The notes: generated by a model from the letters alone, not told the origin. A stretch of 64,000 bases of DNA from Paracoccus sp. (in: a-proteobacteria) (GCF_035556475.1 NZ_DATMFA010000022.1:72-64071); one strand, 5' to 3'; shown: positions 2,964-58,108, counted from the first letter of the stretch. Translations and numbers: made by a program.

Positions 2964-2966
2964 GGT

Positions 2967-3788: not shown

Positions 3789-3791
3789 GTC

Positions 3792-7767: not shown

Positions 7768-7802
7768 GACTTTCTTCTCCCCCTATTGTGGCGCCCGTCC
7801 GT

Positions 7803-8690
7803 TTATCGGCGGGTCAGCTTCAGCTTTTCGCGGACCTCGGCCGGGCCGAGGATACGGCATCCCATATTGGTCAGGATCGTCGCGGCGCGTTCGACCAGAT
7901 CGCCGTTGCGGGCCAGGACACCGCGATCCAGCCAGATATTGTCCTCAAGACCCACGCGGACATTACCCCCGGCCAGCACCGCCTGTGCGGCATAGGGTAT
8001 CTGCATCCGCCCGATCGAGAACATGGAATAGACCCAGCCCGGCGGGATGTTGTTGACCATCGCCATCAGGCTGTTCGGGTCGCTGGGCGCGCCGTAGGGA
8101 ATGCCCATGCAAAGCTGGATCATCACCGGATCGTCGATCAGCCCCTCGTCCACCAGCGTCTTAGCCAGCCACAGATGGCCGGTGTCGAAGACCTCGATTT
8201 CCGGGCGCACCCCGGCAGCCTGAATGCGGGCAGCCATGGCGCGCAGGGTGCCGGGCGTGTTGGTCATGACGTAATCGGCCTCGGCGAAATTCATCGTGCC
8301 GCAGTCGAGGGTGCAGATCTCGGGCAAAAGCTCCTCGACATGGACCAGCCGCTCGGTGGCGCCGACGATGTCGGATTGCGGCGACAGCGGCAGCGGCGCC
8401 TCGGCCGAACCCAGCACGATGTCGCCGCCCATGCCAGCCGTCAGGTTCAGCACCACGTCCACATCCGAGGACCGCACCCGTTCCACCACCTCGCGATACA
8501 GCGCCGGATCGCGCGAGGGCGCGCCGGTTTCGGGATCGCGGACATGCACATGCGCGATGGCGGCGCCGGCCCGGGCGGCCTCGATGCAGGCATCGGCGAT
8601 CTGGGCGGGGGTGATCGGCACGAGATGGGATTTCTTGTGGCTCTGCCCCGATCCGGTGACGGCGCACGTGATGAAGACGTCGTGATTCAT
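7803..8690 (-). CDS. cdhC: BKACE (DUF849) 3-dehydrocarnitine cleavage enzyme
   Basis: [15 protein letters not shown] Zn-binding motif, [22 protein letters not shown]; adjacent to carnitine dehydrogenase. Confidence 0.85.
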
Positions 8691-8713
8691 CTGATTCCTC
8701 GGAGAAGTATTCC

Positions 8714-8759
8714 CTTCAGGTTACGAGGATTTGGCTGGCATGATATGCGAATTAGGCCA
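8714..8759 (-). promoter_or_regulatory. Divergent promoter region between cdhC and its regulator, sharing motifs with 13697-13743
   Basis: CTTCAGG...GGCAT..ATGC..ATT(A)GGCCA occurs in both short divergent intergenic regions at 41 vs 42 nt spacing. Confidence 0.45.
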
Positions 8760-8765
8760 TAATAT

Positions 8766-9713
8766 TTGCTTATGCAGTCAATATCGCCGTTTCACCTGAC
8801 TTTCCTGCTGCTCGACGGCTTTTCCAACATGGTGCTGGCCAGCGCGATCGAGCCGTTGCGCGCGGCCCGCGATCTCAGCGGGAAACGGCTGTTTTCATGG
8901 CAGGTCGCCTCGGTCGATGGTGGGCCGGCGGTCAGCTCCTCACGCCTGTCCTTGGGGGTGGATATCCCCCTATCCCGCGTCGGTGCGACGGATGGGCTGA
9001 TCGTGGTCGCGGGCTATGGAGCGCGGGATCATGCCCGGCGCGAGACATTGCAACTGGTGCGTTCCAAGGGGCGTGGCCTTCCGGTGGTTGGCGGGATCGA
9101 CACCGGCGCCTGGCTGCTGGCCGAGGCTGGGCTGCTTGCGGGGCGTCGCGCGTCCATTCATTGGATGGAGGCGCAGGCCATGGCGGAAGCCTTCCCCGAG
9201 GTCGATGTCGTGCAGTCCGAATGGGTCGCCGACGGCAATACCGTGACCTGCGGCGGGGCGCAGGGGGTGCTCTCATGGTCGCTGGATCTGATCGGCCGCC
9301 ACGGTGACGAGGCGCTGCGTTATGACGTTGCCAATATGTTTGGCCGCAGCCAGATGCGGATGCCGGAGAGCGGCAGCAACCGGATGGTGGACCGCGCATT
9401 GCCCCCCGGTCTTCAGCGCGCAGTGCTGGCCATGCGGGAGACCGCGGAAAACCCAAAGCCGCTGGCCGCGATCGCCGCGCGTGCGGCACTGTCGCCGCGC
9501 ACGATGGACCGGCTGTTCCACAAGCATCTGGGCATGGCGGCAGGCGGCTATTATCGCACCATCCGCATGTCCCACGCCCGCGCGCTGGCCATCGAGACGG
9601 GCCATACTCTGGATGAGATCGCGGCGCGCACCGGGTTTTCCTCTGCCACCACGTTGGCCCGTGCCTATCGTGCGAGCTTCGGACAGACCATTCGGGCGAC
9701 TCGGCGCAGCTAG
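8766..9713 (+). CDS. GlxA/CdhR-type AraC family transcriptional regulator
   Basis: N-terminal DJ-1-like domain (IEPLRAA, GIDTGAWLLAEAGLL) plus AraC HTH (LSPRTMDRLF, GFSSATTLARAYRASFG). Confidence 0.88.
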   Translation: MLMQSISPFHLTFLLLDGFSNMVLASAIEPLRAARDLSGKRLFSWQVASVDGGPAVSSSRLSLGVDIPLSRVGATDGLIVVAGYGARDHARRETLQLVRSKGRGLPVVGGIDTGAWLLAEAGLLAGRRASIHWMEAQAMAEAFPEVDVVQSEWVADGNTVTCGGAQGVLSWSLDLIGRHGDEALRYDVANMFGRSQMRMPESGSNRMVDRALPPGLQRAVLAMRETAENPKPLAAIAARAALSPRTMDRLFHKHLGMAAGGYYRTIRMSHARALAIETGHTLDEIAARTGFSSATTLARAYRASFGQTIRATRRS

Positions 9714-10489
9714 CGCCCTTTCCAGACCGGATCACGTTTCTCGGCGAATGCGCGCGCCCCTTCCAGTTGATCCTCGGAACGGTAGAGCCGTTCGACGGTC
9801 TCCAGTTGGCTCTTGGTGATGCGGTTCAGCGCGTCCTGGAACTTCATGTCCTCGGCCTCGCGGACGATTTCCTTGATCGCTGCGAAAACCAGCGGTGGGC
9901 CCGAGGACAGTTCGTCGGCGAGCGCCCGGGCGGCGGCCATCAGCCCGTCGGCGGGGAGGATGCGGTTGATAAGGCCCCAGCGCGCGGCCTCATCGGCATC
10001 CAGCCAGCGTCCGGTCAGCAGCATCTCCATCGCGATGTGATAGGGGATGCGCTTCGGGAGCTTGATCGAGGCCGCGTCGGCGACGGTGCCCGAGCGGATC
10101 TCGGGCAAAGCGAAACGCGCATGTTCAGCGGCGAGGATGATGTCCCCCGACAGCGCCAGTTCCAACCCGCCGCCGCAGCAGATGCCATTCACCGCCACGA
10201 TCACCGGCTTGTTCAGACCGCGCAGCTCCTGCAAGCCGCCAAACCCTCCGACACCATAGTCGCCATCCACTGAATCGCCGCCCGCCGCCGCCTTCAAGTC
10301 CCAGCCGGGGCAGAAAAACTTCTCGCCCGCGGCTGTCAGGATGGCGACGCGCAGGTCGGGGTCATCGCGGAAACGGGTAAAGACCTCGCCCATGATGCGG
10401 CTGGTGGCAAGGTCGATGGCATTGGCCTTGGGCCGGTTCAGAGTGACCTCCAGCACATGACCGCGCGTCTCGGTTCGGATCGGGTTCAT
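9710..10489 (-). CDS. caiD: Crotonobetainyl-CoA hydratase / carnitinyl-CoA dehydratase (crotonase family)
   Basis: NRPKANAID, FFCPGWDLKAAA, GGFGGLQE, GGGLELAL, LPKRIPYHIAME match the CaiD/BcoD type. Confidence 0.85.
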   Translation of the reverse strand: MNPIRTETRGHVLEVTLNRPKANAIDLATSRIMGEVFTRFRDDPDLRVAILTAAGEKFFCPGWDLKAAAGGDSVDGDYGVGGFGGLQELRGLNKPVIVAVNGICCGGGLELALSGDIILAAEHARFALPEIRSGTVADAASIKLPKRIPYHIAMEMLLTGRWLDADEAARWGLINRILPADGLMAAARALADELSSGPPLVFAAIKEIVREAEDMKFQDALNRITKSQLETVERLYRSEDQLEGARAFAEKRDPVWKGR

Positions 10490-12516
10490 GGCAGCTCCCT
10501 TCGGATCAGCGCATCTACGGCGACGGCATCGTGTTCGCGGCAGATGAGCGGGTTGATTTCAATTTCGGTCAGTCCCGGCGTGGTGCGAACATAGTCCTGC
10601 ACCGCCATGACGGCATCGGCGATGGCATCCAGGTTGGCGGGTGGCGCGCCGCGCCAGCCTTGCAGCAGCGGCCAGATTTTCAACCCGCGCAAAATGGCGA
10701 TCACGTCATCGCGCGAGACCGGAAGCAGAGCCGAGGCGCTGTCGCGCAAAAGCTCGGTCAGCACACCGCCGGAACCGATGGTCAGCAGCCAGCCATGCGC
10801 CGGGTCGCGCGTGACGCCGATCAGGATTTCGGCGAGGCCCCCGGTCACCATTTCCTCGATCAGGAAAGATGTCGCGCCCATGCGGCGTGCCGCTGCCCTG
10901 ACCGCCTCGGCATCGTTCAGGCTCAGGACGACGGCGCCAGCCTCGGTCTTATGGGCAAAGCCCTCGCCCTTGAGCGCCACCGGAAAGCCGGGCGCCTCGG
11001 CAGCGGCTTCCTCGGGCGAGGTTACCCGGCGCGAGGCCGGGACGCGCAGACCGTGGGCCGCCAGCTCGGCCTTGGCCTGCGCCTCGGTCATGAGCGCGGG
11101 CAACACCGCCGGATCGGGGGGCAGGGGCCAGACCGGCTCAGGTTTGCCGGGCAGCGGGCTCGCGGCAAGCGCGATGGCGGTCATCGCTTCCGTTATGCCG
11201 CAAAGCGGGGTGATGCCCATGGCGATGCAGCGCCGCGCGACCTCCTCCGGCAGGTTCTCGGGCAGCGAGGCGATCAGCGCCAGCGGCATCGCGGGTGCCG
11301 GGCTGCCGGTCAGGGAGGCATCCATCGCCGCCACCACCTCGTCCCACGCGCCGACCGTGCATCGGTCGGCGCGGGGAAAGTCCAGCACGACGCAGGCCAT
11401 GGCCAATGTCGGGTCGGCGACAGCGCGAAAGCAGGCCGCCATCGCGTCACGGTCACCCCAGACATAGGTGTTATAGTCCAGCGGATTGGAAAGCGCGACC
11501 TTGGGCCCGAGCGCCTGGCGCAGGGCGCATTTCTGGACCGCATTCAGCGCGGGAAACTCCACGCCATGCGCCAGTCCGGCATCGGCCATCAGGCTGGCCT
11601 CTCCGCCCGAACAGGACAAGGACGCGATGCGGCGCGAGGCCAGAGGCCCCGCCACATGCAAGAGCTTCAGCGTTTCCAGCAGGGCCGGCAGGCTGTCGAC
11701 CTGCGCGATCCCCAGTCGGCGCAGCAATGCACGGCCACCCGCATCCGACCCGGCCAGCGAGGCGGTATGCGACACCGTCGCCGTCTGGGCCTGCGCCGAG
11801 GCGCCGACCTTCAGCGCCACGATGCGCTTGCCCAAAGCACGCGCGGTGGCGGCCAGCGCCTCGAAGCCGGGCACATCGCCGATGCCCTCGATATGCAGGC
11901 CAAGCGCGGTGACGCGCGGATCCGCCAGCAGCACCTTTCCGACCTCGGCAAAGCCCAACCGGGCCTGATTGCCCAGGGTAACGACATAGCCGAGCGGCAG
12001 GCCCCGCCGCTGCATGGTCAGGTTGATCGCGATATTCGAGGACTGGGTGATGATGGCGACACCCCGGTCCACGCGCTCGCAGCCATGCTGGTCGGGCCAG
12101 AGCGCAGCACCATCCAGCGCGTTGATGAAACCGTAACAGTTCGGTCCCAGGAACGGCATGTCACCCGCTGCCGCGACGAGGCGCTCCTGCATGGAGGCGC
12201 CATCGGCCAGCTCGGCGGTGGCCTCGCGGAAACCGGCGGCAAAGCAGACCGCGCCGCCTGCCCTCATCGTCGCCAACTCGGTCATCACTGAAATGGAGCT
12301 GTCGCGGTTCACGCCGACAAAGACCGCGTCCGGGGGCGATGGCAGGTCGGCCAGCCGGGCAAAGGCGCGCAGCCCGCCGATTTCGGCCTTGCCGGGGTTG
12401 ACCGGCCAGATCGGCCCATCAAAGCCGATGCGCTGGGAGGCGCTGATGATATTCCCGCACCACCCGCTGCCACCGATGGCGGCGATAGAGCGGGGACGAA
12501 ACAACCGCTCCATCAC
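10486..12516 (-). CDS. Acetate-CoA-ligase family acyl-CoA synthetase (NDP-forming), BcoA/B-like
   Basis: CoA-binding domain, LGPNCYG, SCSGG, NPLDY, HKTEAGAV ATP-grasp; lies between ACAD and caiD. Confidence 0.8.
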   Translation of the reverse strand: MMERLFRPRSIAAIGGSGWCGNIISASQRIGFDGPIWPVNPGKAEIGGLRAFARLADLPSPPDAVFVGVNRDSSISVMTELATMRAGGAVCFAAGFREATAELADGASMQERLVAAAGDMPFLGPNCYGFINALDGAALWPDQHGCERVDRGVAIITQSSNIAINLTMQRRGLPLGYVVTLGNQARLGFAEVGKVLLADPRVTALGLHIEGIGDVPGFEALAATARALGKRIVALKVGASAQAQTATVSHTASLAGSDAGGRALLRRLGIAQVDSLPALLETLKLLHVAGPLASRRIASLSCSGGEASLMADAGLAHGVEFPALNAVQKCALRQALGPKVALSNPLDYNTYVWGDRDAMAACFRAVADPTLAMACVVLDFPRADRCTVGAWDEVVAAMDASLTGSPAPAMPLALIASLPENLPEEVARRCIAMGITPLCGITEAMTAIALAASPLPGKPEPVWPLPPDPAVLPALMTEAQAKAELAAHGLRVPASRRVTSPEEAAAEAPGFPVALKGEGFAHKTEAGAVVLSLNDAEAVRAAARRMGATSFLIEEMVTGGLAEILIGVTRDPAHGWLLTIGSGGVLTELLRDSASALLPVSRDDVIAILRGLKIWPLLQGWRGAPPANLDAIADAVMAVQDYVRTTPGLTEIEINPLICREHDAVAVDALIRRELP

Positions 12517-13673
12517 GCCCCCAAAGGCCGGAACAGCTCGCGCCCGATGATATGGCGCTGGATCTCTGACGTGCCGTCCCAGATCCGCTCGACACGGGCA
12601 TCACGCCAGAAGCGTTCGACAGGGAAATCGTCCATCAGCCCCATGCCGCCATGGATCTGCAGCGTCGCATCGGTGACGCGGGCCAGCATCTCGGATGCAT
12701 AAAGCTTGGCGCTGGCAATCTCGCGGTTCGCGGGCAGGTTCTGGTCCAGCCGCCACGCGCCGGAAAGCGTCAGCCAGTCGGCGGCGTCGATCTCGGTGAT
12801 CATGTCCGCGATCTGGAAGCTGATGCCCTGAAACCGGGCGATGGGCTGGCCGAACTGCTGCCGCTCTGCCGCATAGCTGACGGCATGGTCAAAGCAGCGC
12901 CTCGCCCGCCCGACGCAGAAGGCCGCGACCGTCAATCGCGTGGCATAGAGCCATTCGTTCATCACCGCAAAGCCGCCATCGACCTCGCCCAGCACCTGCG
13001 TATCCGGCAGGCGGCAACCGTCGAAATACAGCGTGTAATTGCGATAGCCGCGATGCGAAACCGAGTTGTAGCCGTCGCGCACCTCGAATCCCGGCGTGCC
13101 GCGATCGACCAGAAAGCAGGTGATGCGCTTTTTCGGTCCCTGCGGCGTGTCGTCCAACCCGGTCGCCACGAAGACAATGAAGAAATCCGCATGTTCCGCA
13201 CCGGAGATGAAGTGTTTCGAGCCATTCACCACCCAGTCGCCGCCATCGCGCACCGCCGTGCATTTCATGCCGCGCACGTCCGAACCCGCGTCAGGCTCGG
13301 TCATGGCCAGCGCGTCCATCCGCTCGCCCCGCACGGTGGGCAGCAGGTAACGTTCGCGCTGCTCGTCCTTGCAGGCCATCAGGATATTCTGCGGCCGGCC
13401 AAAGAAATGCGTCAGCGCCATCGAGCCGCGACCCAGCTCGCGCTCAACCAGCGTCATGCTCAGATGCGACAGGCCGGCGCCACCGACCTCCTCCGGGAAG
13501 TTGCAGGCATAGAAGCCCAGTTCGATGACCTTGCGCTTGATCTCTTCGCCAAGTTCACGCGGCACCTGACCCGTCCGTTCGACCAGCACCTCATGCGGGT
13601 AGATCTCGTTTTCCACGAAACTGCGCACGGTGGAAACGATCATCTGCTGTTCATCGTCCAGCCCGAAATCCAT
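12513..13673 (-). CDS. Acyl-CoA dehydrogenase, BcoC-like (gamma-butyrobetainyl-CoA dehydrogenase)
   Basis: AMTEPDAGSD, NGSKHFIS, RQQFGQPI, QIHGGMG, RIWDGTSEIQ; start trimmed to MDFGLDDEQ. Confidence 0.85.
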   Translation of the reverse strand: MDFGLDDEQQMIVSTVRSFVENEIYPHEVLVERTGQVPRELGEEIKRKVIELGFYACNFPEEVGGAGLSHLSMTLVERELGRGSMALTHFFGRPQNILMACKDEQRERYLLPTVRGERMDALAMTEPDAGSDVRGMKCTAVRDGGDWVVNGSKHFISGAEHADFFIVFVATGLDDTPQGPKKRITCFLVDRGTPGFEVRDGYNSVSHRGYRNYTLYFDGCRLPDTQVLGEVDGGFAVMNEWLYATRLTVAAFCVGRARRCFDHAVSYAAERQQFGQPIARFQGISFQIADMITEIDAADWLTLSGAWRLDQNLPANREIASAKLYASEMLARVTDATLQIHGGMGLMDDFPVERFWRDARVERIWDGTSEIQRHIIGRELFRPLGA

Positions 13674-13696
13674 GAAGAAACCCCTTGTCGATTCGA

Positions 13697-13743
13697 CTTC
13701 AGGATGGAACATCTCGGCGGAGGGCATCATGCAGGATTGGCCA
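13697..13743 (-). promoter_or_regulatory. Divergent promoter region between bcoC-like gene and its regulator
   Basis: Same motif arrangement as 8714-8759. Confidence 0.45.
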
Positions 13744-13749
13744 ATGGTC

Positions 13750-14694
13750 ATGCAGAGTTGGAATGAAAAAGATCCAGCTTGGCAGGTCGACGTGTTGCTC
13801 TTCGACCATTTCTCGAACCATTGTTTGGCCAATGCGATCGAGCCATTGCGCGCCGCCAATACCCTTTCGCGCAAATCGCTGTATCGCTGGCGCTTCCTTG
13901 GTATCGACGGGGCGCCGGTGCAGTCCTCCAGCGGGTTGCCGGTGACGCCCGAGGCCGCATTGCGTCATGTGGACGGCGGTGATTGCCTGATCGTCATGCC
14001 GAGCTACGGCTTTCGTGCCCATGCCTCGGTCGCCTGTCTGCACGCCTTGCGCGCCGCCGCGCGGCGCTACGGCATGCTGGTCGGCATGGATACCGGCGCA
14101 TGGTTGCTGGCCGCAGCCGGCCTTCTGGATGGGCGTCGCGCAACCATCCACTGGGACGAGATCGGCACCCTGGCCGAGACCTTCCCCGAGGTCGAGGTCA
14201 TCTCGGACCGCTTCACCATCGACGGCAACCGGCTGTGCTGCGGCGGCGTGACCACGGCCTTCGACCTCATCCTGCATCTGATCGGCGAACAGCACGGCTC
14301 CATGCTGGCGTTGGAGGTCGCCGCATTGTTCATGCACGGCACCCGAGAGCACGCCAGCCAATACCGCGCCACGCCCGACGCCGCCGTCCATGCCGTGGTG
14401 TCGCTGATGCGTCGCAACATCGAGGCACCCCTGCCGATCCCCGAGATCGCCGCCCGCGCCGGGCTGAGCCGCAAGCGTCTGGAAACATTGTTTCGCGACC
14501 GTCTTCGCATGACCCCGCAGGCCGTCTATCGCGCCATCCGGTTGCGCGAGGCGCGACGGCTGGCTGAATACAGCCGCCAGAGCATCTCGGAGATCGCCAG
14601 CCGTTGCGGATATGACGATGCCACGGCGATGACACGCGCCTTTCGGTCGGAATTCGGATGCACTCCCACTTCGTTGAGAGGGTCGGGATTGTAG
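13750..14694 (+). CDS. Second GlxA-type AraC family regulator
   Basis: FSNHCLANAIEPLRAAN, GMDTGAWLLAAAGLL, AraC HTH; start 13750 or 13744. Confidence 0.87.
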   Translation: MQSWNEKDPAWQVDVLLFDHFSNHCLANAIEPLRAANTLSRKSLYRWRFLGIDGAPVQSSSGLPVTPEAALRHVDGGDCLIVMPSYGFRAHASVACLHALRAAARRYGMLVGMDTGAWLLAAAGLLDGRRATIHWDEIGTLAETFPEVEVISDRFTIDGNRLCCGGVTTAFDLILHLIGEQHGSMLALEVAALFMHGTREHASQYRATPDAAVHAVVSLMRRNIEAPLPIPEIAARAGLSRKRLETLFRDRLRMTPQAVYRAIRLREARRLAEYSRQSISEIASRCGYDDATAMTRAFRSEFGCTPTSLRGSGL

Positions 14695-14894: not shown

Positions 14895-15665
14895 TCAGGG
14901 GTTATGAAACGCGAGCCGACTGGCAAGATCCCGAGCGATCTCGGCGAAATGAGCAGGACCGTGCATCTCGGCCTCGGCCTCGGTCATCGAGATAGCCAGA
15001 CCCGCAGCCACTGCCCCTCCAGCCTCGCGGATCGGCACGCCGACACAGACCATTCCCACCCGGATTTCGCCGCAATCGAGCGCAAAGCCCCGTGCCGCCG
15101 CCTCATCCAACTGCGTCTCGAGGCTTTGGGCGTCAGAGACGCTGGCCGGGGTAAAGGCCTCGGGCCAGGTCGTTGGCAGGATCGCCTGCCGCGCGGCGGT
15201 GGCAAGCGTCGACAGAATCGCCTTGCCTGTGGCCGAGAAAACTGCAGGCACGCGCATGCCGGTGCGAAAGGTGAAGCCGAGTGGCCGCACCGAGTTGCGG
15301 CAGCCGATGTAAACGACATCCGCCTGGTCCAGTACCGAGAGTGTCACCGTATAATCGGCCAGCCGCATATCCTGCGTCATCAGATGGTCGAAGGCGCGGA
15401 CAAGATCATTGCGGCCGAGATAAGCCGCGCTCCATTGCAGCACATGCGGACCGAGAGCAAACCCCCCGGCCTCGACTTGCAATAGCCCGAGCCGCACCAA
15501 GGTTTCGCACAGGCCATGCAGCGTGCTTTTCGCAATCTGGAGGCGTTGCGACAATTCCGACAGGCGTAAGGGCCCCGTCTCCTCCGCCAAAAGGTCAAGC
15601 ACTGCCACCGCACGGCCAAGGGCTGGCACCACAAGCTTCTGACGCGGAGCAGACAGGTTGTCCAT
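14895..15665 (-). CDS. blcR: IclR family regulator, BlcR/AttJ-like (succinic semialdehyde sensor)
   Basis: VPALGRAV HTH start; YTVTLSVLDQADVVYIGCRNSVRPLGFTFRTGMRVPAVFSATGK closely follows my recollection of Agrobacterium BlcR; divergent from an SSADH gene. Confidence 0.75.
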   Translation of the reverse strand: MDNLSAPRQKLVVPALGRAVAVLDLLAEETGPLRLSELSQRLQIAKSTLHGLCETLVRLGLLQVEAGGFALGPHVLQWSAAYLGRNDLVRAFDHLMTQDMRLADYTVTLSVLDQADVVYIGCRNSVRPLGFTFRTGMRVPAVFSATGKAILSTLATAARQAILPTTWPEAFTPASVSDAQSLETQLDEAAARGFALDCGEIRVGMVCVGVPIREAGGAVAAGLAISMTEAEAEMHGPAHFAEIARDLASRLAFHNP

Positions 15666-15773
15666 GACTCGATCCTCGTTCGTCCCGGCTTGTAAGGACA
15701 GGCCTTCGTTTCCGACAGGTGCGACTGGCTCTGACAAGTTGACAGAAGGCGCCAGGCTTTCTAATGTCCCATC

Positions 15774-15809
15774 GTTCGGTATATTGATTACTGTTCATAA
15801 TATCGAACA
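15774..15809. promoter_or_regulatory. Tandem IclR-type operator (two imperfect inverted repeats)
   Basis: GTTCGGTATATTGATT-ACT-GTTCATAATATCGAAC between divergent blcR and gabD. Confidence 0.65.
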
Positions 15810-15879
15810 CAACAGCCTGTCAATGAACTTCTATCGCCGCCACGCCTTTGGCTTCATCCGCTCCAACCGGGAATACACC

Positions 15880-17325
15880 ATGCTTCATCTCGCCGATCCG
15901 TCGCTTCTGCGTTCAGCCTGCCTCGTGAATGGAGAATGGCGGCAAAGCGTGTCGGGCAGATTGATCGATGTCACCAACCCGGCCGATGGATCGGTCGTGG
16001 GGCAAGTGCCTCGCTTTGATCACGATGAGATCGCCGAGGTGATCACGGCCGCCGAGCAGGCGCAGAAACCTTGGGCGGCGCGTACGGCCAAGGACCGCTC
16101 GGGCGTTCTGCGCAGATGGTTCGAGCTGATAGTCGCCAATGCCGAAGATATTGCGCTGATCATGACCTCCGAGCAGGGCAAGCCGCTGGCCGAGGCGCGG
16201 GGCGAGGTGATCTATGCCGCCTCCTTCATCGAGTGGTTTGCCGAAGAGGCCAAGCGCATCTATGGCGAGACCGTTCCCGCGCCGCTGACGAGTCAACGCA
16301 TCACGGTGCTGAAGCAGCCGATTGGCGTCACGGCAGCAATTACGCCGTGGAACTTCCCGGCGGCCATGATCACCCGCAAGGTCGGTCCGGCATTGGCGGC
16401 GGGCTGCACGATGATCGTTCGTCCAGCCGACCTGACGCCACTGACCGCATTGGCGCTTGGCGCGCTGGCCGAGCGGGCTGGGATACCGGCAGGCGTGTTG
16501 CAGATCGTCACGGGATCTTCGACCGGGATCGGCAAGGCACTGACCGAAAGCGATATTGTGCGCAAGCTGTCCTTCACCGGTTCGACCGAGGTGGGCCGGC
16601 TGCTGATGGCGCAATGCGCACCGACGATCAAGAAAGTCAGCCTCGAATTGGGGGGCAACGCGCCCTTCATCGTTTTTGACGATGCCGACCTTGATGCGGC
16701 GGTCGAAGGGGCGATCATCTCGAAATTCCGCAATGCCGGGCAGACTTGCGTCTGCGCCAATCGCTTTCTGGTCCAGGACGGTGTCTACGATGCCTTCGCC
16801 GAGAAGCTGGCCGAGCGCGTTGCGGGTTTGAGAGTCGGAAACGGGATCACGAAGGGCACCGATCTTGGCCCGCTGATCGAGGAAAAGGCGCTGCAGAAAG
16901 TCGAGGATCATATTGCCGATGCGCTGTCGAAAGGGGCAGAGCTGGTGCAAGGGGGCAAGCGTCTGGGCGGGCTCTACATGTCACCTGCCGTCGTGACCGG
17001 GGTGACCCCGGCGATGAAGGTGGCGCAAGAGGAAACCTTTGGGCCGCTGGCCCCTCTGTTCCGCTTCAAGACCGAGGACGAAGCCTTGCGGCTGGCCAAT
17101 GACACTATCTTTGGACTGGCCGCCTATTTCTATACCCGCGACCATGCCCGGGTCATTCGCGTCAGCGAGGGGCTGGAATATGGTATGGTTGGCCATAATA
17201 CCGGCATGATCTCGAATGAGGTGGCTCCGTTCGGCGGGGTCAAACAATCGGGTCTCGGCCGCGAGGGCTCTCACCACGGCATCGAGGACTATCTCGAGAT
17301 CAAATACATCTGCTCGGCAATCTGA
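15880..17325 (+). CDS. gabD: NAD(P)-dependent succinate-semialdehyde dehydrogenase (GabD/BlcA type)
   Basis: ITPWNFPAAMITRK, SFTGSTEVG, LELGGNAP, GQTCVCANR, EETFGP, FGGVKQSGLGREGS. Confidence 0.92.
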   Translation: MLHLADPSLLRSACLVNGEWRQSVSGRLIDVTNPADGSVVGQVPRFDHDEIAEVITAAEQAQKPWAARTAKDRSGVLRRWFELIVANAEDIALIMTSEQGKPLAEARGEVIYAASFIEWFAEEAKRIYGETVPAPLTSQRITVLKQPIGVTAAITPWNFPAAMITRKVGPALAAGCTMIVRPADLTPLTALALGALAERAGIPAGVLQIVTGSSTGIGKALTESDIVRKLSFTGSTEVGRLLMAQCAPTIKKVSLELGGNAPFIVFDDADLDAAVEGAIISKFRNAGQTCVCANRFLVQDGVYDAFAEKLAERVAGLRVGNGITKGTDLGPLIEEKALQKVEDHIADALSKGAELVQGGKRLGGLYMSPAVVTGVTPAMKVAQEETFGPLAPLFRFKTEDEALRLANDTIFGLAAYFYTRDHARVIRVSEGLEYGMVGHNTGMISNEVAPFGGVKQSGLGREGSHHGIEDYLEIKYICSAI

Positions 17326-17391
17326 AACAGCAGATCAGGACCAGGTCTTGGGGAGGCTTCATAAATGGGGCCTCGCCCTGTTTGCGGTCGG

Positions 17392-17516
17392 GGCATCAGT
17401 CGGTTCTGTAAGGAAACGACAAGGGGGTCGAGGCTTTCCCTCACCCGTCCGATCGAGGTGAATACCCCCTCTGGATCGACGCGACGTATCTCAAGATCCG
17501 CCAGAGCGGCCGGATC
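17392..17516 (+). mobile_element. Decayed IS256-family transposase fragment
   Basis: Across frameshifts reads SRFCKE-[I]DKGVEAF-[L]TRPIEGEYP-LWIDATYLKIRQSGRI, the IS256 region around the first catalytic Asp. Confidence 0.75.
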
Positions 17517-17621
17517 ACGGCCACGCTCTTGGATTCCTCGAGATGCTGATGAAACCCGCAGGTCACCTGCAAGGCAGAAGCAGGTGAGTCTCAGAAATCC
17601 CACAATTCGATAGAGCTATTT

Positions 17622-17638
17622 TTCATATTGATAATGAA
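17622..17638. promoter_or_regulatory. Candidate operator upstream of tctB
   Basis: Inverted repeat TTCAT-N7-ATGAA in an AT-rich patch. Confidence 0.35.
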
Positions 17639-17753
17639 GCCTGCTTGAAGTAGAGCCTGCCCTGCTCTTGGAGAAGGAGCTGGTCACTTTCTTGATCTTG
17701 GTCTGCATGACTGCGCCTTCCCCAATGATCTGAAAAGCCTGGGGAGGAGCAAG

Positions 17754-18200
17754 GTGCTAAACGTTCGGTTATCGCAAGATCTGCTTGCAGCACTGATATT
17801 CATTTTGATCGGCAGTTCCGCACTGTGGTTTGGACGGATGCTGGAACCCGGCACTTCGGCCGAGATGGGGCCGGGATATCTGCCCCGCGCCCTCGGCTGG
17901 CTCATTCTCGGTTTTGGCATTATCACAATGCTGCGAAGCGTCTGGATCGCGTCGCCGCGTGTGGGAGGCATCAAGCTGCGTCCGATCCTCGTGGTCATGG
18001 GCGCGGTGGGTCTGTTTGCCTTGCTTGTCGAGCCAGCTGGTTTCATCCCGGCGAGTGTCGCGGTCGTCTTGCTTTCGACCTTCGGGATGGGTCGCCCCTC
18101 GCTGCCATACCTGCTTGGCCAGAGCATCCTGTTGCCGGCTGCGCTGGCGGTCGTCTTTGTGCTGGGCCTGGGCCTGCCCTTCGACCTGTGGTGGTTCTGA
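17754..18200 (+). CDS. tctB: Tripartite tricarboxylate transporter small membrane subunit TctB
   Basis: Four TM segments, MGPGYLP motif, GFIPA; directly upstream of tctA. Confidence 0.85.
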   Translation: MLNVRLSQDLLAALIFILIGSSALWFGRMLEPGTSAEMGPGYLPRALGWLILGFGIITMLRSVWIASPRVGGIKLRPILVVMGAVGLFALLVEPAGFIPASVAVVLLSTFGMGRPSLPYLLGQSILLPAALAVVFVLGLGLPFDLWWF

Positions 18201-18201
18201 C

Positions 18202-19707
18202 ATGATGGACCTGTTGAACAATCTCGCCATCGGGTTCTCCGGCGCGGCCACGCTCGAGAATATCCTTTACGCATTCTGTGGCTGTCTTCTGGGCACGCTG
18301 GTGGGCGTATTGCCGGGCATCGGCGTTGTGCCCACGGTGGCGATGTTGCTGCCCCTGACCTTCGGGATTGATCCGCTTTCGGGCCTGATCATGCTGGCCG
18401 GCATCTATTACGGTGCACAATATGGCGGATCCACCGCGGCAATCCTGGTCCGCATGCCGGGTGAGGCAGGCTCGATCGTGACCGCGATCGACGGCTACGA
18501 GATGGCCCGGAAGGGGCGCGCCGGGGCTGCCTTGTCGATCGCCGCGATTGCGTCGTTCTTTGCCGGGACCGTGGCGACACTGCTGATTGCCGGCTTTGCG
18601 CCTTCGCTCGCGAAGGTCGCCGCGCTGTTTCATTCCGCCGACTATTTCTCGCTGATGGTGCTGGGCCTGACCATGTCCATCGTCCTTGCCCACGGTTCGA
18701 TCTTCAAGGCCATCGCAGTGATGCTGATCGGGTTCCTTTTTGGCTTGGTCGGCATCGACATCAATTCGGGCGAGCAGCGTTTCACCTTCGAGCTGCCCGA
18801 ACTCTGGGAGGGCATCAGCTTTCTTGCCATCTCGATCGGCCTGTTCGGTCTGGTCGAAGTGGTGCGAAATCTGGAATTTCCCGAGCCGACGCTGGGCTCG
18901 ATCAAGACCTCGCTGCGCGACATCTATCCGACGCGTGAGGAGGTGCGGGACGCGGCGCCTGCCGCAGTCCGGGGCACGTTGGTCGGCTCGATCCTTGGCA
19001 TTCTGCCCGGCGGAGGGGCCATCCTCGCTTCGTTTGCGAGCTATACGCTTGAGAAGAAGCTGTCGAAGAATCCGGCCAGCTTCGGCAAGGGCGCACCAGC
19101 CGGGGTTGCAGCGCCCGAGGCCGCCAACAATGCCGGGGCGCAGACAAGCTTCATCCCGTTGCTGACACTGGGGCTGCCGTCAAATCCGATCATGGCATTG
19201 CTGATGGGCGCAATGATGATCCACGGCATCGCGCCCGGCACGGCCGTCATCTCCGACCGACCCGAGCTGTTCTGGGGCCTCGTCGCCTCGATGTGGATCG
19301 GAAATCTGCTGCTGGTCGTGCTGAACCTTCCGCTGGTCGGGCTATGGGTCAAGCTGCTGACGATCTCCTACAAGCTGCTCTTTCCGGCGATCATCATGTT
19401 CTGCCTGATTGGGGTCTATTCCGAGGGTGGCAATGCCCTCCAGATTCTCCTGCTCGGCGCCTTTACCCTGCTGGGCTATCTGCTGTCGCGCTGCAATTGC
19501 GAGCCGGCGCCAATGATCCTTGGCTTTATCCTTGGCCCGATGATGGAGGAGAACCTGCGGCGAGCGCTGACCGTCTCGGAGGGGGATTACTCGATCTTCG
19601 TCACGCGGCCCATCTCGCTCTCGCTTCTGATCATGGCGGTGCTGCTTGTGCTGGCGGTCACGTTGCCGGGCCTGCGCAGGTCGCGCGAAGCGGTCTTCGA
19701 GGAATAG
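18202..19707 (+). CDS. tctA: Tripartite tricarboxylate transporter large membrane subunit TctA
   Basis: GTLVGVLPGIG, YYGAQYGGS, PGEAGS, APEAANNA, LTLGLPS motifs. Confidence 0.93.
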   Translation: MMDLLNNLAIGFSGAATLENILYAFCGCLLGTLVGVLPGIGVVPTVAMLLPLTFGIDPLSGLIMLAGIYYGAQYGGSTAAILVRMPGEAGSIVTAIDGYEMARKGRAGAALSIAAIASFFAGTVATLLIAGFAPSLAKVAALFHSADYFSLMVLGLTMSIVLAHGSIFKAIAVMLIGFLFGLVGIDINSGEQRFTFELPELWEGISFLAISIGLFGLVEVVRNLEFPEPTLGSIKTSLRDIYPTREEVRDAAPAAVRGTLVGSILGILPGGGAILASFASYTLEKKLSKNPASFGKGAPAGVAAPEAANNAGAQTSFIPLLTLGLPSNPIMALLMGAMMIHGIAPGTAVISDRPELFWGLVASMWIGNLLLVVLNLPLVGLWVKLLTISYKLLFPAIIMFCLIGVYSEGGNALQILLLGAFTLLGYLLSRCNCEPAPMILGFILGPMMEENLRRALTVSEGDYSIFVTRPISLSLLIMAVLLVLAVTLPGLRRSREAVFEE

Positions 19708-19786
19708 CGCAAAGGCTTCGTTTTCTGCTCACTATCCTGCCGGGTGCATTCCGGCGGGCCTTCTTCTCAACCCCGGAGTATTAGAA

Positions 19787-20734
19787 ATGGCCAATCTTGT
19801 CGGCATTGCCGCCTTGTCACATTCTCCGTCCTGGGATCTCTCGCGGGATCTGGAGGGTCCAGGCGCAGCCTTCGTCGCGGCGGTCGAACGACTGCGCAAG
19901 TTCAACGGCCAGAAGGTCGACGCAATCGTATTGTTCGGGCCGGATCACTATCGCAACTTCTTCTATGACCAGATGCCGCAATTCTGCATTGGCGTGGAAA
20001 AGCTGGATGGATACGGCGACTATGACAGTCCGGCCGGTCCCCTGCCGGTGCAGCGGGAACTGGGCAAGCATGTGCTTGACCGGCTGATGTCCTCGGGCTT
20101 CGATCCGGCGGTGTCGCTGAACATGTGTGTGGATCATGGCCACACCCAGCCTTATGCAGCGGTCAACCCGGCGCTCGACATTCCGGTCGTGCCGATCATG
20201 ATCAACTGCCAGGGCGGTCCGCGGCCGACCTACCGCCGCGTCATGGATTTCGGCCGCGTGGTCGGCGAAGCAATCCGCTCGTTTCCGGCGGAGATGAATG
20301 TCATCGTCATGGGTTCCGGCGGGCTTTCGCACTTCCTGCCAAAGATGTCTGCCGACGACACGGCTACCCCGGAAAATACCCGCGACTACATCATCAACGG
20401 CCGCGAACGCTCGCGCGAGGTGAATGCCGAGAAGGAGCGCGTTTCGAAGGAACGCCGCGCCGAAAAACGCACGGGCAAGGTTTCCGAAGCGTGGGATGCT
20501 TGGTTTCTGAATCTGGTCGAGACCGGAAACTTCGAGCCGCTGCATCTCATGTCCGATGCCGAAATCGAGGAGGCTGCTGGCAATGGCGCGCATGAGTTGC
20601 GCACCTGGCTGGCCGCGGCCGCGGCCTGGGGCCGCGACATAAGGACCGTGGGCTACGAGGCCGTGCCAACCTGGATCACCGGCATGGGCGTGATCGGCGG
20701 TGGCATCTGCCTGCCGCAAGACAAACAAGGCTGA
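19787..20734 (+). CDS. mhpB: LigB/MhpB-class extradiol dioxygenase (2,3-dihydroxyphenylpropionate 1,2-dioxygenase-like)
   Basis: LSHSP, PDHY..FFYD.MP.FC.GV, VDHG, GSGGLSH, HELRTW match the MhpB layout; 315 aa. Confidence 0.8.
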   Translation: MANLVGIAALSHSPSWDLSRDLEGPGAAFVAAVERLRKFNGQKVDAIVLFGPDHYRNFFYDQMPQFCIGVEKLDGYGDYDSPAGPLPVQRELGKHVLDRLMSSGFDPAVSLNMCVDHGHTQPYAAVNPALDIPVVPIMINCQGGPRPTYRRVMDFGRVVGEAIRSFPAEMNVIVMGSGGLSHFLPKMSADDTATPENTRDYIINGRERSREVNAEKERVSKERRAEKRTGKVSEAWDAWFLNLVETGNFEPLHLMSDAEIEEAAGNGAHELRTWLAAAAAWGRDIRTVGYEAVPTWITGMGVIGGGICLPQDKQG

Positions 20735-20749
20735 ACGCGGAGTATCGCC

Positions 20750-21622
20750 ATGATCGAACAAAACCAGGACTACCGCTCGCTTTGGACAGGGCTGCGCGAA
20801 ACGGCCTTTGAACAGGGCTTCACGCGCGTCAACGGTCTGAATACGCGCTATGCCCATGCCGGCACCCGGGGCAAGCCCGCGATCGTCATGCTGCATGGCA
20901 CCGCGGGCCATTGGGAAGCCTTCTCGTCCAATTTCCGGGCCCATGCCGAGGATTTCGACCTTTATGCGCTGGACATGGTCGGCTGCGGCTTCACTGACAA
21001 GCCGGATCACCCGCTGGAGGTGAAGCATTACATGGCGCATGTGATCGGCTTCATGGACGCCATGGGGCTGGACCGTGCCCATCTGATGGGTTGCTCGCTC
21101 GGGGCATGGATCTCGGCCACCATCGCCTTGCGCCATCCCGAGCGTGTCAACAAGCTGGTTCTGCTTTCGGCTTCGGGCTATTTCTCCTCGGCGGAAAATC
21201 GCGGGCGCATCATCTCGCAGCGGACCAAGGCGGTGGACGATCCCTCATGGGACAACGTCAAGGCGATCTTCAACAAACTCCTCGCAAAAGAGGAAAGCCG
21301 CATCGACGATCTGGTCGCCCACCGCCAGGCCATCTATCGGATGCCCGAGATGAAGCGCGGCATGATCAATATTCTTGCGCTACAGGATCCCGAAATCCGG
21401 GAACGCAATCTGCTGAAGGACGATGATTGGAGGTCGATCACCGCCCCGGCGCTCGTGGTGGGATCGTTGGCAGATGCCGATGAGTATCTGCGCACAGCCC
21501 GGATCGTCTCCAGGCTGATGCCAAACGCGGAATATGTCGAAATGGAAGGGGTTGGCCATTGGCCGCAATTCGAAGATCCCAAGACCTTCAACCAGTTGAG
21601 TCTTGAATTCCTCACCGCCTGA
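20750..21622 (+). CDS. mhpC: Meta-cleavage-product C-C hydrolase (MhpC/HppC-like alpha/beta hydrolase)
   Basis: LHGTAGH, DMVGCGFTDKP, GCSLG nucleophile elbow, GHWPQFE; follows the extradiol dioxygenase. Confidence 0.72.
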   Translation: MIEQNQDYRSLWTGLRETAFEQGFTRVNGLNTRYAHAGTRGKPAIVMLHGTAGHWEAFSSNFRAHAEDFDLYALDMVGCGFTDKPDHPLEVKHYMAHVIGFMDAMGLDRAHLMGCSLGAWISATIALRHPERVNKLVLLSASGYFSSAENRGRIISQRTKAVDDPSWDNVKAIFNKLLAKEESRIDDLVAHRQAIYRMPEMKRGMINILALQDPEIRERNLLKDDDWRSITAPALVVGSLADADEYLRTARIVSRLMPNAEYVEMEGVGHWPQFEDPKTFNQLSLEFLTA

Positions 21623-21632
21623 AGCAATTGGA

Positions 21633-21660
21633 AACGCCCCGTGGAGACCCGCGGGGCGTT
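21633..21660. terminator. Bidirectional hairpin terminator
   Basis: AACGCCCCGTGG-agac-CCGCGGGGCGTT between convergent genes. Confidence 0.75.
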
Positions 21661-21684
21661 CTGCGATGAAGTGGTCGCACCGGC

Positions 21685-22476
21685 TCAAGTCTCGTATTCG
21701 GCCAGTTCGCGCGTGATTGCCTGGACGGCCTGAAGCACCTCGTCAGTCATTTCGGCCAGATTGTTTCCGACAAAACGGAAAGCCGGTCCGCCAAGCGCGA
21801 TGCAGTAGGTCAGGCGACCGCCGGAAAAGATCGGCCCCGCCACACCGCTGACCCCTTCGTCGCGCTCTTCGTTCGAGATTGCGAAACCCTGCTTGCGGAC
21901 GCGCTCCAACTCGCGTTCCAGAAGGGTGGGGTCGGTGATCGTGTTTGGCGTATAGGCGCGCGGGGTGAAGTTGCGGAACATCTCCTTGACCTCGTTCGGC
22001 GGCAGGAATGCCAGCATGACCTTTGCGCCGGCGGTGGCCGGCCAGGGCAGGGTGGTATTGCGCAGATAGGGAATGCGGACATGATGTCGGCAATCGATGC
22101 GGTCCAACGGCACGAGTTCGGGGCCGATCAATTCACGCAGCGAGGTGAATTCGCCGAATTTTTCGGACAGCCGCTCCAGATAGGGGCGGGCAATGCGCAG
22201 CACAGTCGAGTTGCCCTTAGCCACGCGCGCAAGCTCGACGATCTTGGCGGAAAGCTGAAACCCACCCTCGCGGTCCTCGATGATCAGCCCATAATGCTTC
22301 AGGCTGTTGAAATATCGGTAGATCGTCGAGCGGGGCATGTTGAGGTGCTGCGCCAGCGCCGTCGGCGTCCAGACCGGGTGCGCGGCGTCGAAAGCCAGCA
22401 GGATCTCGATAGCGCGATCGGCGGTAGAATTCGCGCTCGTCAACTTGTCCTCACCTCTGAGAGTGCTCGCCATCAT
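21685..22476 (-). CDS. IclR family regulator (pathway regulator, MhpR-like position)
   Basis: STADRAIEIL HTH, PRSTIYR, TAGAKVMLA, GFAISNEERDEGVSGVAGPIF; start could instead be TTG at 22443. Confidence 0.87.
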   Translation of the reverse strand: MMASTLRGEDKLTSANSTADRAIEILLAFDAAHPVWTPTALAQHLNMPRSTIYRYFNSLKHYGLIIEDREGGFQLSAKIVELARVAKGNSTVLRIARPYLERLSEKFGEFTSLRELIGPELVPLDRIDCRHHVRIPYLRNTTLPWPATAGAKVMLAFLPPNEVKEMFRNFTPRAYTPNTITDPTLLERELERVRKQGFAISNEERDEGVSGVAGPIFSGGRLTYCIALGGPAFRFVGNNLAEMTDEVLQAVQAITRELAEYET

Positions 22477-22635
22477 CTTTCCTGTGTCGTATTTCAGCCA
22501 ATGCCATCTCATATTATGAAGAAATTCCGACCGACTTCCAGTGCGTTGTAGCTTTGCCGGCAGAGTTCGTCACAAATCATCTTTATATGATAAGATAGTT
22601 ATCGTATTACGGCCGCAAGATGAGGAGGAAACATC

Positions 22636-23610
22636 TTGTTCCGAAACTTGTGTATTACCCGCCGGACTGTTCTTTCGGCTGGGCTCGGTCTTGCGGTCAT
22701 GGCTGGTGCGGCGATTGCCGGTGATGCCTATCCCGACCGTCCGGTCACTCTGGTCGTTCCCTTTGCCGCTGGGGGGACCACCGACGCCATTGCCCGTCTG
22801 ATCGCCGAAGAATTGCAGACCCGCTGGGGCTCTGCCGTCGTGGTGGAGAACAAGCCGGGCGCTGGCGGAGCCATCGCGACGCAGGCTGTAGCACGTTCGA
22901 AACCCGACGGCACCCAGATCCTGTTCAATGACATCGGCATTGCATTGAATGAAGTGACAATGTCGAAGCGGCCCTACGACCTGTCGAAGGATTTGCGTCC
23001 GATCGTCGCCGCGGGTGAATGGCCGTTGGCGGTCGTCGTCAGCAATTCCACGGGCATCAAAACGCTGCCGGAGTTGGTCGAAGCCACGAAAACCAAGAGC
23101 TTGAGTTTCGGCACTTTCGGGCCGGCGTCCTCTCCGCATCTGGCGGCGGAACTGCTGATGTCGCTGACCGACGCGAAGCTGAAGATCGTGCATTTCAAGG
23201 GCGTTGGCCCGGTCATTCAGGCCCTTGCATCGGACGAGGTCGAGGTCAGCGTCTTTGGCGCGGGCGCCGCGGCTGCCGAAGTGACCAAGGGCACGATGAA
23301 TGTTCTCGCGCTGGACTATCGTTCGCCGCTTATGCCGGATGTGCCCACCTATGCCGAAGCAGGGGTCGAGGGAATGCGCTCGATCGCTTGGTGGGGTCTT
23401 TTCGCGCCCGCTGCCACGCCCGACGACATCGTGGACGAGGTCAATGCCGGCGTGAACGATGCCCTCAAGTCGCAGCGCGTGACCGAGTATCTCGAGAAGA
23501 ACGGCTATACGCCGGTCGGAGGCCGGCCGGAAGCACTTCAGCAACGGGTTGATGAAGCGATCGCTCTTTGGGGGCCGTTGATCGAGAAAGCCGGCATCCG
23601 CACGAACTGA
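22636..23610 (+). CDS. tctC: TTT substrate-binding protein TctC/Bug
   Basis: YPDRPVTLVVPFAAGGTTD, VENKPGAGG, PDVPT..EAG, WWGLFAPAATP; TTG start with GAGGAGG RBS. Confidence 0.9.
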   Translation: MFRNLCITRRTVLSAGLGLAVMAGAAIAGDAYPDRPVTLVVPFAAGGTTDAIARLIAEELQTRWGSAVVVENKPGAGGAIATQAVARSKPDGTQILFNDIGIALNEVTMSKRPYDLSKDLRPIVAAGEWPLAVVVSNSTGIKTLPELVEATKTKSLSFGTFGPASSPHLAAELLMSLTDAKLKIVHFKGVGPVIQALASDEVEVSVFGAGAAAAEVTKGTMNVLALDYRSPLMPDVPTYAEAGVEGMRSIAWWGLFAPAATPDDIVDEVNAGVNDALKSQRVTEYLEKNGYTPVGGRPEALQQRVDEAIALWGPLIEKAGIRTN

Positions 23611-23640
23611 ACGCGCGCGGTCACAAGCTGTGACTGGACG

Positions 23641-23669
23641 GGCCGCCCCTTGGGGCGGCCTTTCTTCTT
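23641..23669 (+). terminator. Intrinsic terminator after tctC
   Basis: GGCCGCCCC-tt-GGGGCGGCC followed by TTTCTTCTT. Confidence 0.75.
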
Positions 23670-23769
23670 GGGTGTCGGTCTTGGACAACAATTACTGTAT
23701 TGCGGTAATAGCATTATCGAAATAGAGACAAGCATATGCTTGGCACTTCCCAGCCGGAGAGAGAACTTG

Positions 23770-25401: not shown

Positions 25402-25405
25402 TTAC

Positions 25406-55351: not shown

Positions 55352-55635
55352 CGGAACTGCAATCCCATATTGTCTTCGTCGATGTCGACCCCGAGCACGA
55401 GGCGGCCTTCGACGATTGGTACGACAACGTCCACCTGCCCGAGATCCTTGCTTGCCCCGGCTGGCTGGATGCACGACGCGAGAAATGCCTCGAGGGCGGC
55501 GCGCGACATGTCGCGATCTATACGATCACCGGCCCCGAGGTCTATGAAACGCCCGAGTTCAACGCTATCAAGGGGTTCGGGCCTTTTGCAGACAAGGTTC
55601 GGAACTTTCACCGCATCCGCCTGACGCGAAGCTGA
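55348..55635 (+). CDS. Small dimeric alpha/beta-barrel protein (EthD/DUF4286-like)
   Basis: FDDWYDNVHLPEILACPGW..ARR....RHVAIY. Confidence 0.6.
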   Translation: MTELQSHIVFVDVDPEHEAAFDDWYDNVHLPEILACPGWLDARREKCLEGGARHVAIYTITGPEVYETPEFNAIKGFGPFADKVRNFHRIRLTRS

Positions 55636-55666
55636 GGGGATGCACGCAAGGGAACGCGCGCGGGAC

Positions 55667-58106: not shown

Positions 58107-58108
58107 TC

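Follow-up and report, generated by a model that had tools for sequence, protein, structure and literature searches.

Is the succinate-semialdehyde dehydrogenase (SSADH) gene that faces a BlcR-like repressor gene in Paracoccus sp. the stump of a larger operon, a unit of its own, or the last step of the aromatic pathway encoded beside it? The question was raised by a 64-kb stretch of DNA, called the window in what follows, to the whole of which coordinates and scans refer unless another scope is stated. A first-pass annotation had taken the pair for a blc (att) locus truncated by an IS256-family insertion sequence and lacking the quorum-quenching genes blcB and blcC. Judged from the sequence, the pair most likely supplies the missing last step of the neighboring aromatic pathway and is induced by the end product of that pathway; for the functional coupling itself a probability of about 0.5 was estimated.

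Regulator, dehydrogenase and operator

The predicted 256-residue regulator, also called by metagenome gene callers on identical contigs, contains an N-terminal winged helix-turn-helix domain (PF09339) and a C-terminal effector domain (PF01614), both of which scored over the Pfam cut-offs. Comparison with all solved structures gave BlcR (PDB 3MQ0) as the top match with an E value of 3.7e-55 and 190 bits over 240 residues, against 8e-21 and 78 bits for the runner-up, another IclR protein. Identity to BlcR of Agrobacterium fabrum C58 was 43% over 94% of the length and, with C58 BlcR as the reverse query, the regulator gene (14895-15665) was the sole match in the window. In tblastn searches of plasmids, annotated blcR genes were 43.4% identical, and Thioclava plasmids carried an unnamed IclR gene at 49.4%; the top match in species-representative genomes was 51% identical, and relatives at 60-72% identity were found only in unassembled soil metagenome contigs. 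A TTG-initiated open reading frame (ORF) of 280 residues reaching up to 15737 represents the mechanical maximum only, and the ATG form was preferred.

Residue F133 occupies the position of F147 in BlcR; it lies within the block GFTFRTGMRVPA and is invariant in an alignment of 27 family members. Pan et al. are said to have reported in 2011 that F147 is important for association with, or binding of, succinic semialdehyde (SSA) and for oligomerization. The regulator can be assigned to the BlcR family with high confidence, and its homology makes SSA the likely effector. The blcABC genes are repressed by BlcR and induced by gamma-butyrolactone (GBL), gamma-hydroxybutyrate (GHB) and SSA, the true inducer being SSA, possibly together with GHB (PMC5924552, review).

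The SSADH gene was read from the ATG at 15880, since the first residue of its product pairs with the first residue of C58 BlcA; gene callers chose an alternative in-frame ATG at 15823, giving 500 residues. The translation contains the aldehyde dehydrogenase motifs ELGGNAP and GQTCVCANR. It scored over the cut-off of the SSADH subfamily TIGR01780 (694.9 vs 646.35 bits) and under that of NF008415 (PRK11241), the equivalog for NADP-dependent SSADH (767.6 vs 828). The top structural matches were 3EK1, titled aldehyde dehydrogenase, followed by 4V6H and 3JZ4 (titled SSADH (NADP+)). The protein is 70% identical to C58 BlcA and 75-78% identical to the regulator-linked SSADHs of Rhodobacterales and Brucellaceae, and its gene gave the only SSADH-like aldehyde dehydrogenase match in the window. 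The proposal that a BlcR-like IclR protein is encoded divergently from an SSADH is thereby confirmed.

The intergenic spacer of about 214 bp (15666-15879), vs 55 bp in C58, contains a bipartite operator of 35 bp which reads, on the plus strand, GTTCGGTATATTGATT (15774-15789), ACT, GTTCATAATATCGAAC (15793-15808). The first-pass annotation had the sequence of this element right and its end, given as 15809, one base too far. When the pattern GTTC-N8-GAAC-N3-GTTC-N8-GAAC was searched with up to two mismatches, a single match was obtained in 64 kb, vs 0.01 expected from shuffled sequences. A general repeat search of the spacer found nothing because the exact arms comprise just 4 bp. The similarity to the blc operator proposed in the first-pass annotation is real. 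Read so that the SSADH gene lies to the left, the blcR-blcA spacer of C58 contains GTTCAACTAATTGAAC TTG AATCATTAGAGTGAAC, and the minus strand of the window in the same orientation GTTCGATATTATGAAC AGT AATCAATATACCGAAC; the layout is 16-3-16 in both, with identical half-site spacing.

The window operator carries 14 of the 16 specified bases of the family consensus. For comparison, 68 divergent regulator/SSADH loci were drawn from the 80 species-level loci of a family-alignment genome scan and from plasmid and metagenome loci; in 63 of these the best site in the spacer matched 13-16 of the 16 bases, the median for a background of random 200-nt windows being 9. In most of the family sites listed, and likewise in the window, the repeat nearer to the SSADH gene is conserved better than its partner.

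A promoter-like site for the SSADH gene, TTGACA-17-TAATGT, was read by eye. It was not listed by a stricter promoter scan because the second hexamer matches at three of six positions only. The operator starts 6 nt past this hexamer, so that a bound repressor would sit on the transcription start. In the proposed mechanism the repressor would, without SSA, occupy both repeats and block the SSADH promoter, binding as two dimers that form a tetramer by analogy with BlcR, and the regulator gene would possibly be autorepressed. Accumulating SSA, supplied by the neighboring HpaI step or by any other source, would bind the effector domain and cause the repressor to leave the DNA, and SSADH would then oxidize SSA to succinate. 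The pair is probably a complete, self-contained and substrate-induced SSA oxidation module of the BlcR family.

The module and the aromatic cluster

The cluster that follows the module ends in a pair of genes for an HpaH-type hydratase and an HpaI-type aldolase, in agreement with the HpaI that had been noted there. Aldolases of the HpaI type yield pyruvate and SSA, and an SSADH carries out the final step of that route (PMC12718150; PMC3053370); the aldolase encoded here is expected to be the source of SSA. The hydratase scored 259 bits with the 2-oxo-hept-3-ene-1,7-dioate hydratase 2EB4, vs 128-143 bits with 2-oxopent-4-enoate and 2-keto-4-pentenoate hydratases. Homologs of HpaE, HpaF and HpaG were not found among the annotated ORFs of the window. 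HpaE, the 5-carboxymethyl-2-hydroxymuconate semialdehyde dehydrogenase, also oxidizes SSA, which its authors offered as the explanation for hpa operons without an ssadh gene (PMC12718150). A pathway without HpaE would need a dedicated SSADH.

The dioxygenase of the cluster is MhpB-like and not of the HpaD type. Its top structural match was the 2,3-dihydroxyphenylpropionate 1,2-dioxygenase MhpB (8K04, 159 bits); it is 36.5% identical to MhpB of E. coli and scored under all NCBIfam MhpB cut-offs. The hydrolase matched best, at ~75-83 bits, PDB chains titled meta-cleavage-product hydrolases, which we take to be CumD, BphD and HsaD. An MhpA-like flavoprotein, MhaA, has been proposed to act on 3-hydroxyphenylacetate, and the class on hydroxyphenylacetates (PMC3053370), so that the annotation as MhpA-like leaves the substrate of the hydroxylase unfixed.

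GC content at third codon positions is 0.72-0.77 (0.81 in one gene) from the regulator gene through hpaI (14895-26999), vs 0.78-0.88 on both flanks. To judge by this shared lower value, the regulator-SSADH module and the aromatic cluster seem to have been imported as a single block. To the left, a complete carnitine/gamma-butyrobetaine cluster (838-14694) is syntenic with plasmid p1 of Paracoccus methylovorus, the nearest DNA relative of this flank, at ~79% DNA identity, and this synteny stops at ~14680, just short of the regulator gene. The upstream genes at 7803-14694 were considered as a source of SSA and rejected, being carnitine/gamma-butyrobetaine genes with no SSA-yielding step.

A metagenome scan with the dioxygenase located the same aromatic cluster on other contigs, with 76-83% protein identity for most genes and 61-68% for tctB and tctC. 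The hybrid cluster (17754-26999) recurs on the soil metagenome contigs L094, L095, L096, L097 and L098, and in a looser form on a Sphingobium plasmid. On L095, as in the window, the gene immediately before tctB encodes an SSADH. This enzyme is 65% identical to the window SSADH, its gene has neither a BlcR-like neighbor nor an operator-like site, and DNA homology to the window resumes only at tctB. The gene on the other side of the L095 SSADH gene (5147-5700, minus strand of L095) appears from its translation to encode a DJ-1/PfpI-type protein rather than a regulator. On the Sphingobium plasmid pTomTYG64a a gabD gene is found beside an hpcG hydratase and an aldolase gene; genes for a dioxygenase, a hydrolase, an IclR protein and an MhpA-like enzyme are close by. 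The SSADHs of L095 and Sphingobium cluster together (153/200 bootstraps) outside the regulator-linked clade, which indicates that an SSADH was attached to the pathway more than once. In the window a BlcR-type cassette holds this place, with the IS256 remnant at the join. The suggestion of the first-pass annotation that SSA made by HpaI induces the last step is plausible and gains from these comparisons.

Several observations weigh against functional coupling. The aldolase gave HpaI as its top NCBIfam family with 317.1 bits, under the cut-off of 368.8, and the MhpA/MhpB-like upper enzymes leave both the substrate of the cluster and its aldehyde product undefined; no SSADH is needed in the classical Mhp route, whose product is succinate. 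An identity of only 43% to BlcR makes another effector possible. No RNA runs carrying the sequence were found, the matches being soil, leaf and insect metagenome runs apparently listed as DNA. Both trees used here are neighbor-joining only, that of the regulators having a single outgroup and no bootstrap values. Finally, none of the 80 related regulator loci shares genes of the aromatic cluster, which makes the association peculiar to this lineage.

The remaining adverse points also favor the most durable of the competing explanations, namely that the pair is a stand-alone housekeeping or detoxification unit for SSA of any source (gamma-aminobutyrate, GHB, stress) and lies beside the cluster by an accident of island assembly. 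The two-gene module occurs in 23 other species in unrelated neighborhoods without shared aromatic genes. The sole operator in the window is that of the SSADH gene and its regulator, and no second one was found in the window, including before the aromatic genes. The cluster has an IclR-type regulator of its own (21685-22473), which is probably the one that controls it, and the IS256 remnant and 428 bp part the SSADH gene from tctB. No SSADH gene was found near the cluster on L096, L097 or L098. Against all this stand the single composition block formed by module and cluster, unlike both flanks, the two other cluster versions that carry an SSADH, the lack in this cluster of HpaE with its additional SSA-oxidizing activity (PMC12718150), and the position of the SSADH gene, which stands right before tctB and reads in the same direction, just as on L095. 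The stand-alone explanation is thus a possible but doubtful one, and supply of the last pathway step by the module is the reading preferred here.

A scan found no terminator-like site between the SSADH stop codon and tctB, so read-through into tctB is possible. Between the IS256 remnant and tctB there is an AT-rich patch (17590-17650) with a promoter-like TCGATA-17-GATAAT at 17607-17635, a candidate promoter for tctBA and the dioxygenase and hydrolase genes.

As to the chemistry of the cluster, reaction types suggest that a homoprotocatechuate-type catechol could be converted by the dioxygenase and hydrolase to formate and the substrate of HpaH. The hybrid cluster may encode a hydrolytic route, so far undescribed, to 2-hydroxyhepta-2,4-diene-1,7-dioate. 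An extended version of this idea, put forward tentatively and considered rather unlikely, is that the cluster is a formate-releasing hydrolytic branch of the homoprotocatechuate-type meta pathway, in which the MhpB-like dioxygenase and the C-C hydrolase would feed HpaH and HpaI and bypass HpaE, HpaF and HpaG. The need for a dedicated SSADH would then have been met at least twice independently, on L095 and the Sphingobium plasmid by a plain gabD-type gene and here by a mobile BlcR-SSADH cassette that would add end-product induction, its join marked by the IS256 remnant.

Partner genes in the BlcR family and the IS256 remnant

Homologs of BlcA, BlcB and BlcC were mapped in every family locus. 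The regulator is accompanied by A-B-C at 11 loci (including C58, Azorhizobium, Martelella, Poseidonocella and several Enterobacteriaceae), by SSADH and GHB dehydrogenase (A-B) at 18 species-level loci and by SSADH only at 23 species-level loci, where loci of this last class were read for 1.5 kb or more past A and neither B nor C was present within 10 kb. Of 17 regulator + A loci inspected, at least 6 have a convergent ORF as the next long one, and the SSADH gene is therefore probably monocistronic in these. As had been claimed for the window, a tblastn search of it with E up to 1 found no BlcB or BlcC homolog.

In the neighbor-joining regulator tree the A-B-C loci all group with C58 in a single clade, and the window regulator is placed elsewhere. 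Its neighbors are the soil-metagenome relatives, then a Phyllobacterium metagenome-assembled genome (MAG), a Paenochrobactrum MAG and Rhodobacterales. No locus of its clade has a lactonase, and its sister clades include regulator + SSADH + blcB loci. A long branch separates the BlcR family from the other IclR protein of the window. The SSADH tree places the window enzyme within the regulator-linked Rhodobacterales/Brucellaceae clade, C58 excluded, in 200/200 bootstraps; it mirrors the regulator tree, which suggests that regulator and enzyme travel as one unit. The nearest characterized protein to the regulator is BlcR, and the clade of the window genes is not that of the C58 genes.

The scar of an IS256 element reported downstream of the SSADH gene was found at 17396-17516. 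Plasmids of Phaeobacter piscinae carry IS256-family transposase genes to an internal part of which this segment is ~80% identical (blastn, E 5e-19); identity to those of Cereibacter is ~77%. Its translation contains YPLWIDATYLKIRQSGRI followed by stop codons, and a Pfam scan of the 42-residue piece found no match. Neither an intact DDE transposase gene nor the terminal inverted repeats of IS256 were found at 17396-17516, which is a remnant and not an element.

It is improbable that an IS256 event removed blcB and blcC from a blcABC-type operon and left the sensor and the SSADH. The remnant does lie exactly where blcB follows blcA at other loci, blcB occurs in the sister clades, and on contig L092 a regulator 60% identical to that of the window faces a blcB-like gene. 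Contrary to such an event, the 121-bp remnant is not flanked by debris of blcB or blcC, and the DNA downstream of it is syntenic with L095, where an SSADH of another lineage precedes tctB. The regulator with SSADH alone is, moreover, a common arrangement with a convergent next ORF at some of its loci, and lactonase genes are confined to the other clade; the description of the locus as truncated could therefore not be upheld. From these distributions, loss of a quorum-quenching lactonase at this locus is very unlikely and loss of a blcB-type gene weakly supported. In the lactonase-free branch of the family, regulator and SSADH, with or without GHB dehydrogenase, is the normal form to judge by the loci mapped.

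Other gene orders were also observed. At L021, L023, L025, L027 and L065 the regulator gene lies near a lactonase gene and no SSADH was found; L064 and L075 have the regulator with blcB-blcC and no blcA; and at L003, L036, L041, L043, L058 and L063 SSADH and blcB genes are located upstream of the regulator gene, on its strand. The partner genes of the family appear to be modularly shuffled, and certain members seem to have a lactonase but no SSADH under their control.

The other remaining explanation, that the effector is a molecule other than SSA (for example GHB, a different semialdehyde or an intermediate of aromatic breakdown) or that the physiological substrate of the enzyme is a different omega-semialdehyde, for example glutarate semialdehyde derived from a compound with a longer side chain, draws on the low identity to BlcR, on reported responses of BlcR to GBL and GHB in certain assays (PMC5924552; PMC6402643) and on the undefined aldehyde product, and is equally improbable in view of the family-wide SSADH partner gene, the SSADH subfamily score of the enzyme and the far better fit of the hydratase to the C7-dioate enzyme than to C5 enzymes.

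Neighboring genes, known systems and significance

The features of the module and of its surroundings are collected in Table 1.

Table 1. Features of the regulator-SSADH locus and adjoining gene clusters in the 64-kb window.
Feature	Position	Strand	Basis or content
Carnitine/gamma-butyrobetaine cluster	838-14694		Peptide-type ABC transporter, carnitine 3-dehydrogenase fused to thioesterase, BKACE dehydrocarnitine-cleavage-type enzyme; further genes: ADP-forming acyl-CoA ligase, acyl-CoA dehydrogenase, carnitinyl-CoA dehydratase, two GlxA/GbdR-like regulators
BlcR-family IclR-type repressor gene	14895-15665	minus	ATG at 15665, 256 residues; Pfam HTH_IclR + IclR_C
Promoter-like site for SSADH gene	15739-15767	plus	TTGACA 15739-15744, 17-nt spacer, TAATGT 15762-15767; read by eye
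Bipartite operator	15774-15808	none	Imperfect inverted repeat 15774-15789; 3-nt spacer 15790-15792; perfect-armed repeat 15793-15808 on the SSADH side
SSADH gene	15880-17325	plus	481 residues from likely start ATG 15880
Internal remnant of IS256-family transposase gene	17396-17516	plus	121 bp, blastn; no intact ORF
tctB, membrane part of tripartite tricarboxylate-type transporter	17754-18200	plus	Pfam TctB (identical metagenome contigs)
tctA, membrane part of tripartite tricarboxylate-type transporter	18202-19707	plus	Pfam TctA
LigB-type extradiol dioxygenase, MhpB-like	19787-20734	plus	Pfam LigB
Alpha/beta hydrolase related to meta-cleavage-product C-C hydrolases	20750-21622	plus	Pfam Abhydrolase_1
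Second IclR-type regulator	21685-22473	minus	Pfam IclR domains; 27% identical to the BlcR-like protein
tctC, solute-binding protein	22699-23610	plus	Pfam TctC; gene call
MhpA-like single-component FAD hydroxylase	23770-25401	plus	NF004831, 686.7 vs 546 cut-off
HpaH/HpcG-type 2-oxohept-ene-1,7-dioate hydratase	25406-26215	plus	TIGR02312, 356.3 vs 351.5 cut-off
HpaI/HpcH-type class II aldolase	26202-26999	plus	Pfam HpcH_HpaI

Farther to the right, the region 27180-50123 contains genes for four luciferase-like monooxygenases, three SfnB/DszC-like proteins of the acyl-CoA-dehydrogenase fold, an Rrf2 regulator, an aldo-keto reductase and several family-5 solute-binding/ABC transporter proteins, and by these homologies looks like an organosulfur or similar scavenging region. 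A second HpcH/HpaI-family aldolase gene (56581-57402, minus strand) lies in 53301-59389, which together with 63339-64000 contains a LysR regulator gene, tripartite ATP-independent periplasmic transporter genes (DctQ/DctM) and three genes of the dihydrodipicolinate synthase family. Their annotation suggests that these genes probably belong to a separate sugar-acid or keto-acid pathway.

The closest described system is BlcR (AttJ) with blcABC (attKLM) on the At plasmid of A. fabrum C58. There, too, an IclR-type repressor gene is divergent from an SSADH gene, the 16-3-16 operator is built on GTTC...GAAC arms and the F147 position is conserved. In contrast to the window, C58 has blcB for an iron-containing GHB dehydrogenase and blcC (attM) for a lactonase of the metallo-beta-lactamase fold, its regulator and SSADH fall in clades other than those of the window proteins, and the neighborhood is the att region rather than an aromatic cluster. 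Loci of Rhodobacterales, Brucellaceae and Phyllobacteriaceae, with or without blcB, share the operator and the core of two genes, many of them having no more than these two; examples are found on a Thioclava plasmid and in Seohaeicola, Ochrobactrum/Brucella and a Phyllobacterium MAG; their regulators are 44-51% and their SSADHs 72-78% identical to those of the window, and none lies by the aromatic cluster. To our knowledge these loci are annotated only and no characterization of them has been published.

The succession of HpaH-type hydratase, HpaI-type aldolase and terminal SSADH proposed here is known from the homoprotocatechuate (4-hydroxyphenylacetate) meta pathway, as in E. coli Hpa with Sad and in the hpa operon with ssadh of A. 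baumannii TH (PMC12718150; PMC3053370), the latter having been called the sole reported version with an ssadh gene (PMC12718150). The window differs in its MhpA/MhpB-like hydroxylase and dioxygenase, a C-C hydrolase instead of HpaE, HpaF and HpaG, a TctABC transporter and the BlcR-type regulator of its SSADH. With the mhp cluster of E. coli for 3-hydroxyphenylpropionate (MhpRABCDFE) it has in common an MhpA-like hydroxylase, a LigB-type dioxygenase, a C-C hydrolase and an IclR-type regulator; its lower pathway is of the HpaH/HpaI type rather than MhpD, MhpE and MhpF.

With this locus the BlcR family gains a new member of minimal form, unusual for its place next to an aromatic cluster expected to yield SSA. 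That the operator is found throughout the family and that blcA, blcB and blcC are distributed in a modular way is of use but no surprise. The view of BlcR changes with these comparisons: the family core, found in Alpha-, Beta- and Gammaproteobacteria, consists of a repressor that senses SSA, a single 16-3-16 operator and an SSADH, to which the lactonase of Agrobacterium is a clade-specific addition; the lactonase-only members raise the question of which effector they sense. The consensus operator and its natural variants can be used by annotation pipelines and by builders of biosensors. If the coupling is true, the pair would be a portable sensor-enzyme cassette that completes a catabolic island, and this would bear on why most hpa operons are without an ssadh gene (PMC12718150).

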